Positions 1,862 through 50,908 of a DNA stretch of 64,000 bases are shown here, one piece after another. Position 1 is the first letter of the stretch, and each line of letters begins with the position of its first letter. The stretch is from Escherichia coli. GTDB lineage: Bacteria; Pseudomonadota; Gammaproteobacteria; Enterobacterales; Enterobacteriaceae. The translations under genes and the position numbers were made by a program. The notes beneath the pieces were generated by a model. It worked only from the letters and a program-made list of their open reading frames with translations, was not told the DNA's origin and did no database searches. The stretch lies in assembly GCF_041886205.1 (NCBI RefSeq), contig NZ_CP169029.1; one strand, 5' to 3'.

Positions 1862-4174
1862 ATGCCTCGCTTGTTAACCAAACGCGGCTGCTGGATAACG
1901 CTGGCAGCTGCGCCATTTCTCCTTTTTCTTGCAGCGTGGGGAGCAGATAAACTCTGGCCTCTACCGCTGCATGAAGTCAATCCCGCACGAGTGGTCGTGG
2001 CGCAGGATGGTACGCCGCTCTGGCGCTTCGCCGATGCTGACGGCATCTGGCGTTATCCGGTAACAATCGAAGATGTTTCTCCACGTTACCTTGAAGCGCT
2101 GATCAATTATGAAGATCGCTGGTTCTGGAAGCATCCGGGGGTGAATCCATTCTCGGTGGCGCGCGCAGCATGGCAAGATCTCACTTCGGGACGGGTTATT
2201 TCCGGTGGCAGCACGCTCACTATGCAGGTTGCTCGTCTGCTTGATCCTCACCCCAAAACATTTGGCGGCAAAATTCGCCAGCTCTGGCGCGCGTTACAAC
2301 TGGAATGGCATCTGTCTAAGCGTGAAATTCTGACCTTGTATCTTAACCGCGCTCCGTTTGGCGGTACGTTGCAGGGGATCGGTGCGGCAAGTTGGGCTTA
2401 TCTCGGAAAGTCGCCTGCGAATTTAAGCTATTCCGAGGCGGCAATGCTGGCGGTTTTGCCGCAAGCGCCCAGCCGTCTTCGCCCGGATCGTTGGCCGGAG
2501 CGTGCCGAAGCCGCGCGTAATAAAGTGCTCGAACGGATGGCCGTGCAAGGTGTGTGGTCCCGTGAGCAGGTAAAAGAGTCAAGGGAAGAACCCATCTGGC
2601 TGGCACCCCGACAAATGCCGCAACTGGCACCGCTGTTTTCGCGCATGATGCTCGGTAAAAGCAAAAGCGACAAAATCGTTACTACGCTGGATGCCGGTCT
2701 TCAACGACGTCTGGAAGAACTGGCGCAAAACTGGAAAGGGCGGTTGCCACCGCGCAGCTCACTGGCGATGATCGTGGTTGATCATACAGATATGCGTGTT
2801 CGCGGCTGGGTGGGATCGGTTGATCACAACGATGATTCACGCTTTGGTCATGTTGATATGGTCAATGCGATCCGATCGCCAGGATCGGTGCTCAAACCGT
2901 TTGTTTATGGTCTGGCGCTGGATGAAGGCTTGATCCACCCGGCATCACTGCTGCAAGACGTCCCCCGGCGCACCGGTGATTATCGACCAGGTAACTTTGA
3001 TAGCGGTTTTCATGGCCCGATCAGCATGAGCGAGGCGCTGGTGCGCTCGCTGAACTTACCTGCTGTGCAGGTGCTGGAAGCTTATGGACCGAAACGGTTT
3101 GCGGCAAAGTTACGCAATGTTGGATTGCCGTTATATTTGCCCAACGGCGCTGCGCCGAATCTTTCACTCATTCTCGGCGGCGCTGGTGCAAAACTGGAAG
3201 ATATGGCGGCAGCGTATACCGCGTTTGCTCGCCACGGCAAGGCAGGCAAATTGCGCTTACAGCCTGACGATCCGCTGCTTGAACGGCCTTTAATGTCGTC
3301 GGGGGCGGCGTGGATCATTCGCCGGATTATGGCTGATGAAGCGCAACCCTTGCCGGATAGTGCCTTGCCACGCGTCGCCCCACTGGCATGGAAAACGGGC
3401 ACCAGCTATGGCTATCGTGACGCCTGGGCGATTGGGGTTAACGCTCGCTATGTCATTGGGATCTGGACTGGCAGACCTGACGGCACGCCCGTTGTTGGTC
3501 AGTTTGGCTTTGCCAGTGCCGTACCATTGTTGAATCAGGTCAATAATATCTTACTGTCGCGCAGTGCGAATCTGCCGGAAGACCCGCGCCCGAACTCAGT
3601 CACTCGTGGCGTTATCTGCTGGCCGGGCGGACAGTCTTTGCCGGAAGGTGACGGTAACTGTCGCCGCCGCCTGGCAACCTGGCTGCTGGACGGGAGTCAG
3701 CCGCCAACTCTATTACTGCCGGAGCAGGAAGGCATTAATGGCATTCGTTTCCCCATCTGGCTGGATGAAAATGGCAAACGTGTTGCCGCTGATTGCCCGC
3801 AAGCGCGACAAGAAATGATAAATGTCTGGCCGCTACCGCTGGAACCCTGGTTGCCCGCATCAGAACGTCGCGCTGTGCGCTTACCACCGGCCTCGACAAT
3901 TTGCCCGCCATACGGTCACGATGCCCAGCTCCCTCTGCAGCTGACAGGCGTTCGCGATGGCGCGATTATTAAACGTTTACCGGGCGCAGCGGAAGCGACT
4001 TTGCCGTTGCAATCAAGTGGAGGGGCAGGTGAACGCTGGTGGTTTCTGAATGGCGAACCGTTAACTGAACGCGGGCGCAACGTGACCCTGCATTTGACGG
4101 ATAAAGGTGATTATCAATTGCTGGTGATGGATGACGTAGGGCAAATCGCGTCAGTACATTTTTCATTTCAGTGA
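1862..4174 (+). CDS. pbpC: penicillin-binding protein 1C (peptidoglycan glycosyltransferase)
   Basis: 770-aa ORF with an N-terminal membrane anchor and a glycosyltransferase-type N-domain; ATG abuts the yfhM stop (TAAATG). Confidence 0.9.
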   Translation: MPRLLTKRGCWITLAAAPFLLFLAAWGADKLWPLPLHEVNPARVVVAQDGTPLWRFADADGIWRYPVTIEDVSPRYLEALINYEDRWFWKHPGVNPFSVARAAWQDLTSGRVISGGSTLTMQVARLLDPHPKTFGGKIRQLWRALQLEWHLSKREILTLYLNRAPFGGTLQGIGAASWAYLGKSPANLSYSEAAMLAVLPQAPSRLRPDRWPERAEAARNKVLERMAVQGVWSREQVKESREEPIWLAPRQMPQLAPLFSRMMLGKSKSDKIVTTLDAGLQRRLEELAQNWKGRLPPRSSLAMIVVDHTDMRVRGWVGSVDHNDDSRFGHVDMVNAIRSPGSVLKPFVYGLALDEGLIHPASLLQDVPRRTGDYRPGNFDSGFHGPISMSEALVRSLNLPAVQVLEAYGPKRFAAKLRNVGLPLYLPNGAAPNLSLILGGAGAKLEDMAAAYTAFARHGKAGKLRLQPDDPLLERPLMSSGAAWIIRRIMADEAQPLPDSALPRVAPLAWKTGTSYGYRDAWAIGVNARYVIGIWTGRPDGTPVVGQFGFASAVPLLNQVNNILLSRSANLPEDPRPNSVTRGVICWPGGQSLPEGDGNCRRRLATWLLDGSQPPTLLLPEQEGINGIRFPIWLDENGKRVAADCPQARQEMINVWPLPLEPWLPASERRAVRLPPASTICPPYGHDAQLPLQLTGVRDGAIIKRLPGAAEATLPLQSSGGAGERWWFLNGEPLTERGRNVTLHLTDKGDYQLLVMDDVGQIASVHFSFQ

Positions 4175-31526: not shown

Positions 31527-31608
31527 TTATTCAGTCGATAGTAACCCTCCCTCCGGGGATAGCAAGCATTTTTTGCAAAAAGGGGTAGATGCAATCGGTT
31601 ACGCTCTG

Positions 31609-42855: not shown

Positions 42856-43493
42856 TTACTCGTCGGCAGCGTAGCCCTGCGGCGGCAGACGTTGACCATC
42901 CAGCCACGCGGCGTTTTCGTGCATTTTCAGACGACCATCGGCAAACCAGCTAATCACCAGTGGATAAATGGCGTGTTCCTGGGTTTGCACGCGGGCGGTG
43001 ACGTCATCTTCCGTATCACCAGCAAATACCGGGACTTTCGCCTGTAAAATAACCGGGCCACCGTCCAGTTCATCGGTGACGAAATGCACCGATGTACCGT
43101 GCTCTTCATCACCATTTTCCAGCGCCTGACGATGGGTGTGTAATCCGGGATATTTCGGCAGCAGAGAAGGGTGAATGTTCAGCAAACGCCCGGCATAGTG
43201 GGAGACAAACGCCGGGCTGAGAATGCGCATAAAACCAGCCAGCACGACCACATCGGGTGCGTACATGTCGATTTCATGAATCAACTCCCGGTCATAGGCT
43301 TCACGACTGTCAAACGCGCTGGCGATGAGCGTATGTGTTGCAATACCCGCCTGGCGGGCGCGTTCAAGGCCGAACGCGTCGGCCTTATTGCTGAAAACTG
43401 CCCGTACGGTGCCTTTAATTTTGTTGGTTTTACAGGCGTCAATAATTGCCTGTAAATTACTTCCGTTACCGGAAATAAGCACCACAATATTCA

Positions 43494-43494
<1 letters not shown>
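42856..43494 (-). CDS. purN: phosphoribosylglycinamide formyltransferase 1
   Basis: 212 aa, MNIVVLISGNGSNLQAIIDA... Confidence 0.95.
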
Positions 43495-44549
<1,055 letters not shown>

Positions 44550-44594
44550 TTACTTGCGGTAGAAAAATAAAATTCGGCGCAATTCTAACAGGGA

Positions 44595-44610
44595 AAGCAA
44601 ACGTTTGCGA
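44595..44610. promoter_or_regulatory. PurR operator (PUR box) AAGCAAACGTTTGCGA in the purM/upp divergent region
   Basis: Palindrome GCAAACGTTTGC matches the PurR consensus; about 65 bp upstream of the purM start. Confidence 0.7.
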
Positions 44611-44807
44611 GACTGCTTTACACAACCTTTTTGCACGTCTTTTGCCCAGGCGCGCGGCGAAAGAAGACTTGTGCCAGGGCAAAGGTTAGTTTTCGGATGG
44701 AATAATCTTCTTTCATAACCATTTGAATATAAAATAACTTTATCTCAAACTGTTATCATTTTGACTAAAGTCAACGAAAATAATATTGCCGCCTTGAAGA
44801 AAGGAGG

Positions 44808-44829
44808 TATAATCCGTCGATTTTTTTTG
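44808..44829 (+). promoter_or_regulatory. upp promoter -10 (TATAAT) and initially transcribed T8 tract (GATTTTTTTTG) for UTP-sensitive reiterative transcription
   Basis: TATAAT at 44808-44813 followed by CCGTCGA and a run of 8 T; matches the described upp leader architecture. Confidence 0.55.
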
Positions 44830-44855
44830 TGGCTGCCCCTCAAAGGAGAAAGAGT

Positions 44856-45482
44856 ATGAAGATCGTGGAAGTCAAACACCCACTCGTCAAACACAAGCTG
44901 GGACTGATGCGTGAGCAAGATATCAGCACCAAGCGCTTTCGCGAACTCGCTTCCGAAGTGGGTAGCCTGCTGACTTACGAAGCGACCGCCGACCTCGAAA
45001 CGGAAAAAGTAACTATCGAAGGCTGGAACGGCCCGGTAGAAATCGACCAGATCAAAGGTAAGAAAATTACCGTTGTGCCAATTCTGCGTGCGGGTCTTGG
45101 TATGATGGACGGTGTGCTGGAAAACGTTCCGAGCGCGCGCATCAGCGTTGTCGGTATGTACCGTAATGAAGAAACGCTGGAGCCGGTACCGTACTTCCAG
45201 AAACTGGTTTCTAACATCGATGAGCGTATGGCGCTGATCGTTGACCCAATGCTGGCAACCGGTGGTTCCGTTATCGCGACCATCGACCTGCTGAAAAAAG
45301 CGGGCTGCAGCAGCATCAAAGTTCTGGTGCTGGTCGCTGCGCCAGAAGGTATCGCTGCGCTGGAAAAAGCGCACCCGGACGTCGAACTGTATACCGCATC
45401 GATTGATCAGGGACTGAACGAGCACGGATACATTATTCCGGGCCTCGGCGATGCCGGTGACAAAATCTTTGGTACGAAATAA
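44856..45482 (+). CDS. upp: uracil phosphoribosyltransferase
   Basis: 208 aa from [20 protein letters not shown] with RBS AAAGGAGA; the ORF-track GTG start at 44829 is an upstream extension. Confidence 0.95.
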
Positions 45483-45497
45483 AGAATAAAAATAATT

Positions 45498-45528
45498 AAA
45501 GCCGACTTTAAGAGTCGGCTTTTTTTTG
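45498..45528 (+). terminator. rho-independent terminator after upp
   Basis: aaagccgact-ttaag-agtcggcttt then TTTTTTTT. Confidence 0.75.
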
Positions 45529-45567
45529 AGTAAAGCGCCTATAACACATAATACAGAGGATAATACT

Positions 45568-46857
45568 ATGACGCGCCGTGCTATCGGGGTGAGTGAAAGA
45601 CCGCCACTTTTACAGACAATCCCGCTTAGTTTGCAACATTTGTTCGCCATGTTTGGTGCAACCGTCCTGGTGCCCGTCTTATTTCATATTAACCCGGCGA
45701 CTGTACTGTTATTTAACGGTATTGGAACGCTGCTGTATCTCTTCATCTGTAAAGGGAAAATTCCGGCTTATCTTGGTTCCAGCTTTGCCTTTATTTCACC
45801 GGTATTGTTACTGTTGCCGTTAGGGTATGAAGTCGCGCTGGGCGGCTTTATTATGTGCGGCGTGCTGTTCTGCCTGGTTTCTTTTATCGTGAAGAAAGCG
45901 GGGACCGGCTGGCTGGACGTGCTGTTTCCACCTGCGGCAATGGGCGCAATCGTTGCCGTCATCGGTCTGGAGCTGGCGGGCGTAGCTGCCGGTATGGCGG
46001 GTTTACTCCCGGCTGAAGGGCAAACGCCAGACTCCAAAACCATCATCATCTCTATTACCACCCTGGCGGTCACGGTTTTAGGTTCCGTGCTGTTTCGTGG
46101 TTTCCTGGCAATTATCCCGATTTTAATTGGCGTGCTGGTGGGGTACGCGCTCTCTTTCGCAATGGGAATTGTCGATACCACGCCGATTATTAATGCTCAC
46201 TGGTTTGCGCTGCCAACCCTCTATACGCCGCGCTTCGAGTGGTTTGCCATTCTGACAATTCTGCCAGCGGCGTTAGTGGTTATTGCCGAACACGTAGGGC
46301 ACCTGGTAGTAACGGCTAATATCGTCAAAAAAGATCTGCTGCGCGATCCAGGTCTGCACCGTTCGATGTTTGCTAACGGCTTGTCGACCGTGATCTCCGG
46401 CTTCTTTGGCTCCACGCCAAATACCACTTACGGAGAAAACATTGGCGTGATGGCGATCACCCGTGTTTACAGTACCTGGGTTATCGGTGGGGCGGCGATT
46501 TTCGCTATCCTGCTTTCCTGCGTCGGTAAACTGGCTGCCGCTATCCAGATGATCCCATTGCCGGTGATGGGCGGCGTTTCGCTGCTGCTTTATGGTGTCA
46601 TCGGTGCTTCCGGTATTCGTGTTTTGATCGAATCGAAAGTGGATTACAACAAAGCACAGAACCTGATCCTGACTTCCGTGATTTTGATCATCGGCGTCAG
46701 TGGCGCGAAGGTAAACATCGGCGCGGCGGAGTTGAAAGGTATGGCGCTGGCGACCATCGTCGGTATCGGCTTAAGTTTGATCTTCAAACTGATCAGTGTG
46801 CTGCGCCCTGAAGAAGTGGTGCTGGACGCAGAAGACGCGGATATAACAGACAAATAA
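45568..46857 (+). CDS. uraA: uracil:proton symporter
   Basis: 429 aa from [36 protein letters not shown]2 family. Confidence 0.95.
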
Positions 46858-49846: not shown

Positions 49847-50908
49847 ATGCTCGAAATGTTGATGCAATGGTATCGCCGCCGTTTTAGCGACCCGGAAGCG
49901 ATTGCCTTGCTGGTTATTTTAGTTGCCGGATTTGGCATTATCTTTTTCTTTAGTGGCCTGCTTGCTCCGTTGCTGGTGGCTATTGTGCTGGCCTATTTGC
50001 TGGAATGGCCAACCGTGCGCCTGCAATCTATTGGCTGCTCCCGCCGCTGGGCGACGTCGATTGTATTGGTGGTTTTCGTCGGTATATTGCTACTGATGGC
50101 GTTCGTGGTACTGCCTATCGCCTGGCAGCAGGGCATCTACTTAATCCGCGATATGCCGGGGATGCTCAATAAGCTTTCTGACTTTGCCGCCACGTTGCCG
50201 CGCCGCTATCCGGCGTTAATGGATGCGGGCATTATTGATGCAATGGCCGAAAATATGCGCAGTCGGATGCTGACCATGGGCGATTCGGTGGTGAAAATTT
50301 CCCTCGCCTCGCTGGTCGGTTTGCTGACCATAGCCGTCTATCTGGTGCTGGTGCCATTGATGGTCTTCTTCCTGCTGAAAGACAAAGAGCAGATGCTGAA
50401 CGCCGTTCGTCGGGTGCTGCCGCGTAACCGCGGACTGGCAGGACAGGTGTGGAAGGAGATGAATCAACAAATCACCAACTATATTCGCGGCAAAGTGCTG
50501 GAGATGATCGTGGTGGGGATCGCCACCTGGCTGGGGTTCTTACTCTTCGGGCTGAACTATTCGCTGCTGCTGGCGGTGCTGGTCGGCTTCTCGGTACTTA
50601 TTCCGTATATTGGCGCATTTGTGGTAACCATTCCGGTGGTTGGCGTGGCGCTATTCCAGTTTGGTGCAGGCACGGAATTCTGGAGCTGCTTCGCGGTGTA
50701 TCTGATTATTCAGGCGCTGGACGGCAACCTGTTAGTACCGGTGTTGTTCTCCGAAGCGGTTAACCTGCATCCGCTGGTGATTATTTTATCGGTGGTGATC
50801 TTCGGTGGTTTGTGGGGATTCTGGGGCGTATTCTTCGCCATTCCGTTGGCAACGCTGATCAAAGCCGTGATTCACGCCTGGCCTGATGGGCAAATAGCGC
50901 AAGAATAA
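49847..50908 (+). CDS. perM: AI-2E family transporter PerM (YfgO)
   Basis: 353 aa polytopic membrane protein. Confidence 0.8.
   Translation: MLEMLMQWYRRRFSDPEAIALLVILVAGFGIIFFFSGLLAPLLVAIVLAYLLEWPTVRLQSIGCSRRWATSIVLVVFVGILLLMAFVVLPIAWQQGIYLIRDMPGMLNKLSDFAATLPRRYPALMDAGIIDAMAENMRSRMLTMGDSVVKISLASLVGLLTIAVYLVLVPLMVFFLLKDKEQMLNAVRRVLPRNRGLAGQVWKEMNQQITNYIRGKVLEMIVVGIATWLGFLLFGLNYSLLLAVLVGFSVLIPYIGAFVVTIPVVGVALFQFGAGTEFWSCFAVYLIIQALDGNLLVPVLFSEAVNLHPLVIILSVVIFGGLWGFWGVFFAIPLATLIKAVIHAWPDGQIAQE

Follow-up and report, generated by a model that had tools for sequence, protein, structure and literature searches.

The intergenic region between purM and upp in the DNA analysed here, a stretch of 64,000 nucleotides that we call the window, is with a probability of about 95% the characterised divergent control region of the Escherichia coli purMN and upp–uraA operons. 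The regulation of these operons is already known from K-12, and the region is a textbook case in another E. coli strain. Within it, the purMN and upp control modules are independent of each other and lie back to back, their transcription starts ∼244 bp apart; the relationship between them is one of adjacency, not coupling. Sequence identity, positions, statistics and conservation were observed here, and protein binding and the response to UTP would follow from the K-12 literature. The gap between the two coding sequences is 324 bp long and contains both the PurR operator (PUR box) and the upp start region, in the following arrangement (positions are those of the window).

42856–43494, minus strand: purN coding sequence, downstream of purM (open reading frame list)
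43494–44531, minus strand: purM coding sequence, with a GTG start at 44531 (open reading frame list)
44575, minus strand: predicted transcription start of purM, back-calculated from the published FNR-site distance
44582–44587, minus strand: purM −10 hexamer, TAGAAT (sequence)
44595–44610, palindrome of nominal strand, the purMN promoter being on the minus strand: PUR box, AAGCAAACGTTTGCGA, reverse complement TCGCAAACGTTTGCTT (K-12 identity and matrix score)
∼44632–44750, no strand: variable spacer of ∼100 bp between the purM and upp modules, in Escherichia only
44761–44774, no strand: FNR site, TTGACTAAAGTCAA, a K-12 ChIP-chip target, its centre 51.5 bp upstream of the upp G6 start
44786–44813, plus strand: upp sigma-70 promoter, with −35 TTGCCG (44786–44791), a 16-bp spacer and −10 TATAAT (44808–44813) (10/12 in a consensus scan)
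44814–44820, plus strand: N7, CCGTCGA (sequence)
44819–44829, plus strand: upp start region, GATTTTTTTTG, comprising G6 (44819), A7 (44820), the T8 tract (44821–44828) and G (44829)
44856–45482, plus strand: upp coding sequence, with ATG at 44856 (open reading frame list)
45568–46857, plus strand: uraA coding sequence, after upp (open reading frame list)

The window is E. coli DNA of a non-K-12 strain. Its purM–upp intergenic DNA is 100% identical to that of strain KL53 and 95–99% identical to that of most of 5,424 complete E. coli genomes. Alignment with MG1655 revealed five intergenic differences (44644, 44680, 44723, 44751 and 44781), four of which fall in the variable spacer and none in the PUR box, the purM −10, the FNR site, the upp −35 and −10 hexamers or the upp start region. 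An earlier note on this DNA had named departures from the K-12 elements at key positions as what would tell against its reading; we looked for such departures and found none in the PUR box or in the upp element. The SNP at 44781 (T here, G in K-12) lies 5 bp upstream of the upp −35. The purM gene is equal in length to that of K-12, with nine nucleotide changes and one amino-acid difference (residue 291: R here, H in K-12), and the purMN system differs from that of K-12 in this strain background only; the Upp and UraA proteins show no differences from those of K-12. Between upp and uraA, at ∼45497–45527, a hairpin (GCCGACT-TTAAG-AGTCGGC) followed by T8 resembles an intrinsic terminator or attenuator within the operon. 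An Rfam scan of 44300–45700 gave no match in the purM–upp gap and only weak, sub-threshold hits, to leader and sRNA terminator models, at the upp–uraA hairpin.

The earlier note had described a PUR box for purMN and an upp element of the form TATAAT-N7-T8-G in this region, and both are there, exact in sequence. From the start of the one to the end of the other they span 235 bp, within the 240 bp that had been given. The accompanying statement that they lie on opposite strands stands for the upp leader, which is on the plus strand; the PUR box, being palindromic, has a strand in name only and is tied to the minus strand through the purMN promoter.

The box is the orthologue of the K-12 purMN operator (He et al., 1990; Cho et al., 2011, PMC3159470), with which it shares the identical 16 bp, the distance to purM and the −10 hexamer. 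Its reverse complement, TCGCAAACGTTTGCTT, is the motif listed for the K-12 purM–purN PurR ChIP-chip peak, at which PurR occupancy (log2) was 2.08 with adenine as against 0.98 without (PMC3159470), and it agrees with the 16-bp PUR consensus ACGNAAACGTTTGCNT, an imperfect palindrome with a central CG, at 13 of the 14 specified positions. The 16-mer AAGCAAACGTTTGCGA is unique in the window; when up to three mismatches were allowed, a single other match was found, which is unrelated. The scan with a PurR weight matrix that had been proposed as a check was run with a matrix made from 27 published ChIP-chip motifs (PMC3159470), the purM motif being left out. The purM box scored 17.24 bits, which ranks second in the 64 kb and exceeds the best score of every one of 20 shuffles (maximum 15.84). 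Two positive controls were recovered, unchanged, by the same matrix, at guaBA (GCGTAACCGATTGCAT, 31589–31604) and at yfgO/yfgC (CCGGAAGCGATTGCCT, 49892–49907). Taken alone, a palindrome is not unusual in this DNA (20 perfect palindromes of 12 bp were observed in the window, as against ∼16.6 in shuffles), so that the case for the PUR box has to be made from how specifically it matches PurR, where it lies and how well it is conserved.

A consensus promoter scan did not pick up the purM promoter because its −35, TCGCAA, is weak, with 3/6 positions in common with the consensus; the TAGAAT hexamer and published distances were used to locate it instead. The predicted start at 44575 is 192.5 bp from the centre of the FNR site (44767.5) and 7 nt downstream of TAGAAT, a hexamer that is invariant (ATTCTA on the plus strand) across an alignment of 14 Enterobacteriaceae. 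The centre of the PUR box falls 27.5 bp upstream of this start, so placed that the box overlaps the −35 hexamer and the spacer, and the geometry agrees with a published placement of the PUR box 28 nucleotides upstream of purM (PMC3266220). When purines are plentiful, PurR together with hypoxanthine or guanine would bind the 16-bp palindrome and, bound over the purM −35 and spacer, would block RNA polymerase. Such binding at the purMN box of this strain is carried over from published work on K-12, where the sequence is identical.

The top PurR matrix score in the window, 17.78 bits, belongs to a 16-mer inside uraA, ACGGCAACGATTGCGC (45944–45959, minus strand), which covers codons 126–131 (GAIVAV). 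It is one base off the published yieG site, the same sequence is present in K-12, and no separate K-12 PurR ChIP-chip peak is reported at it. Citrobacter, Enterobacter and Phytobacter retain the 16-mer; in many other genera it varies at synonymous positions. Codon choice probably accounts for it; on a weaker variant reading, it could be a PurR roadblock for the upp–uraA transcript.

On the other side of the gap, the full upp string TATAAT-CCGTCGA-TTTTTTTT-G occupies 44808–44829 without a mismatch. TATAAT-N7-T8-G occurs exactly once in the window, where 0.16 occurrences would be expected by chance with up to two mismatches allowed, and the whole window holds only three T8 runs. In the Enterobacteriaceae alignment, GGTATAAT of the upp promoter is invariant. 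The earlier note had also suggested comparison with published data on upp start sites; this was carried out, and GATTTTTTTTG proved equal to the published upp–uraA start region (PMC7039003) and to that of K-12. Indeed, the −35, the spacer, the −10, the CCGTC discriminator, the G6/A7 starts and the T8 tract are all identical to those of the K-12 upp–uraA promoter, the one SNP nearby, at 44781, lying outside the core. Folding of the upp 5′ leader is not significant (z = +0.49), so that no attenuator-type structure is involved.

Start switching between G6 and A7 of upp in K-12, with ladders of AUUU(n), is said to have been described by Tu & Turnbough in 1997, and details of the G6/A7 starts of upp–uraA reportedly come from Cheng et al. 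in 2001. The UTP response of upp in the present strain is likewise carried over from K-12, which has the identical sequence. In this mechanism upp–uraA would need no repressor, RNA polymerase itself serving as the UTP sensor. At high UTP, transcription would start mainly at A7 (44820), and the short AUUU transcript would slip repeatedly on T8, so that AUUUU(n) products would be released and upp left unread. At low UTP, transcription would start at G6 (44819), giving transcripts that do not slip and are elongated into upp–uraA. Excess UTP has been described as driving start-site switching, followed by non-productive reiterative initiation, at both codBA and upp (PMC12709180). Both codBA and pyrBI resemble upp in having a T tract where the transcript begins and in yielding non-productive AUUU(n)/AAUUU(n) at high UTP (PMC7039003, PMC12709180). 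Their start regions, ATTTTTTG for codBA and AATTTG for pyrBI, are unlike that of upp (PMC7039003), and pyrBI differs from upp further in having no start-site switch.

The same elements stand out when the 5,424 E. coli genomes are compared block by block.

44576–44625, 50 bp: PUR box and purM −10 block, identical in 5,397/5,424 E. coli genomes
44625–44755, 131 bp: inter-module spacer block, identical in 65/5,424 E. coli genomes
44783–44840, 58 bp: upp promoter and start block, identical in 4,737/5,424 E. coli genomes

In 1,780 E. coli genomes the spacer block is only 90–95% identical. The sampled single-difference variant of the upp block carries a SNP in the promoter spacer, just after the −35. 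Judged by these counts, the PUR/−10 block and the upp promoter block are under purifying selection and the spacer between them is variable. One assembly, that of E. coli CNREC_004-43, has T7 in the upp start region, which reflects natural variation or else an error in assembling the homopolymer.

Conservation extends well beyond the species. A scan of species-representative genomes with a degenerate pattern for the Upp N-terminus yielded 120 loci, in 84 of which purM lies upstream of upp in divergent orientation; Enterobacterales, Vibrio, Aeromonas and relatives are among the 84, and the divergent arrangement was not seen in the sampled Pasteurellaceae loci. A PUR box scoring 14.7 bits or more, situated 61–139 bp from the purM start, is present in 64/65 Enterobacterales loci, the only one without it belonging to a Sodalis-like endosymbiont, and in 13/13 Vibrio loci. 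The pattern TATAAT-N5-N-[A/G]-T5+ precedes upp in 64/65 Enterobacterales loci. Across these 64 the T tract comprises six residues in 2, seven in 30, eight in 25 and nine in 7, with G at position 6 in 61/64 and A at position 7 in 62/64. The canonical TATAAT-to-T-tract pattern was not found in the sampled Vibrio and Aeromonadales loci, and Aeromonas has a near-match, TATCAT...GA-T7. In Escherichia albertii NBRC 107761, T replaces G6 (TATAATCCGTCTATTTTTTTTG), and the productive G start of E. coli is thereby lost. In Vibrio loci the gap is only ∼170–260 bp, and a run of T6–8 directly after the PUR box, an A run on the purM strand, is possibly UP-element-like.

The earlier note had presented the region as a compact one shared by the two control systems. 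They do occupy one intergenic gap, as it said; they are neighbours rather than a functional unit, and the gap is less compact than in most relatives, where it measures about 220–250 bp. In the 14-Enterobacteriaceae alignment, conservation is concentrated in three blocks, one at the purM promoter and its PUR box, one at the FNR site and one at the upp core promoter and its T tract. Between the first two of these, E. coli and E. albertii have the additional spacer of ∼100 bp, which is absent from the 12 other Enterobacteriaceae. We considered the spacer as a remnant of a repeat or mobile element and rejected this, as it is single copy in every genome. An imperfect hairpin at 44641–44683 was likewise rejected as a structured element: its folding is not significant (z = −1.25 on the plus strand and −0.16 on the minus strand), it sits in the polymorphic, Escherichia-only spacer, and two SNPs that do not compensate each other abolish it in K-12.

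Other genomes have parted the two modules altogether. In E. coli strain MEW (positions 3211–3990 of the locus), an IS1 element lies after the position corresponding to 44740 of the window, between the PUR box and the FNR site. This strain has an additional SNP at the predicted purM start position (window 44575). In six loci, from Enterobacter, Citrobacter and Pluralibacter, ∼1.9 kb separates purM from upp. The six, Enterobacter cloacae among them, share a beta-glucosidase-like gene; in one (L021) the intervening DNA holds an ORF of 487 aa that, by eye, looks like a family-1 6-phospho-beta-glucosidase. In the IS1 and the beta-glucosidase-like gene cases alike, both modules are intact and each element stays beside its own gene, from which we conclude that the region consists of two independent promoter modules plus the FNR site.

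These observations bear directly on whether the PUR box might be a truly shared operator, through which PurR would also control upp and purine status would set uracil salvage. The K-12 PurR ChIP-chip region (2,618,847–2,619,484) does span the whole gap (PMC3159470), and PurR regulates pyrimidine genes, including carAB, pyrD, codBA and pyrBI. Nevertheless, the centre of the box is 216.5 bp upstream of the upp start, which is beyond any usual distance for repression; upp has 0 occurrences in the PurR regulon paper; and each element remains with its own gene where the modules lie ∼1.9 kb apart or are split by IS1. We consider a shared operator very improbable. Still less credible is the notion that the T8 tract, the palindrome or both are incidental, as products of AT-rich promoter-proximal DNA and of chance, with no regulatory role here. 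It can point to perfect 12-bp palindromes being no commoner in the window than in shuffles, and to a T tract that ranges from 6 to 9 among species and is T7 in one E. coli assembly. Both elements, however, are identical to experimentally characterised K-12 sequences, are near-fixed in the 5,424 genomes beside a spacer that varies, and keep their position across an order, and published K-12 mutational and ChIP work contradicts an incidental origin.

The description of the region as one of dual control holds in so far as the PurR and UTP switches are both present; it overlooked the FNR site, with which the inputs would number at least three. This site (TTGAC-TAAA-GTCAA) agrees with TTGAT-N4-ATCAA at 8/10 positions. 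Its centre is at −51.5 relative to G6 and −52.5 relative to A7; positions near −50 are not classical FNR activating positions, which are −41.5, or −61.5 and further. By position it may be compared with the site through which FNR represses the ndh promoter. In sequence and in its −51.5/−192.5 geometry the site is identical to the K-12 upp/purM site (Grainger et al., 2007, PMC1802558). There, ‘upp/purM’ is an FNR ChIP-chip target located at −51.5/−192.5 from two starts, and transcriptome analysis flags it too (PMC1802558); our own count from G6 agrees with the −51.5. Deletion of the site weakened the protective effect of a cloned multicopy intergenic region, for which the authors invoke titration of FNR and PurR (PMC3266220). 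By our arithmetic, the ‘61.5’ of that paper is obtained when one counts to the G that closes the T tract (44829) and not to G6.

Another 23 loci, belonging to Enterobacteriaceae and Morganellaceae, have half-sites of the form TTGA-N6-TCAA 52.5 or 53.5 bp from A7, with an N4 core that varies freely; in 16 of these 23 orthologous loci the FNR consensus is perfect (10/10). One further locus has FNR half-sites at 62.5 bp from A7, 10 bp further upstream. Many genera, among them Klebsiella sp., Yersinia, Serratia and Pantoea, have a degenerate FNR site or none.

FNR bound at −51.5 of the upp start would add a third, oxygen-related input. The dual model might accordingly be extended to a region of three inputs, in which FNR is a conserved oxygen-responsive regulator of upp–uraA, most likely negative or modulating. 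The K-12 ChIP-chip peak and transcriptome flag (PMC1802558), the reduced titration effect upon deletion (PMC3266220) and the recurrence of half-sites at one fixed distance, often as perfect consensus, argue for this extension. Its degeneration or loss in many genera and its non-classical position for activation argue against it, and the direction and size of an FNR effect on upp are not found in PMC1802558 or PMC3266220. We regard the extension as possible, at appreciably less than even odds. That the site might serve as a conserved brake on uracil salvage, responsive to oxygen, so that the region would respond to three signals (purine, UTP and oxygen), we think rather unlikely.

Beyond annotation, the identification carries little weight, and the comparative context that it offers is modest: conservation across an order, the independence of the two modules, and FNR as a less understood input. 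What it does mean is that a non-K-12 strain of E. coli has kept intact, K-12-identical PurR and UTP-sensing controls between purMN and upp–uraA, so that the regulatory data published for K-12 should be transferable to it.
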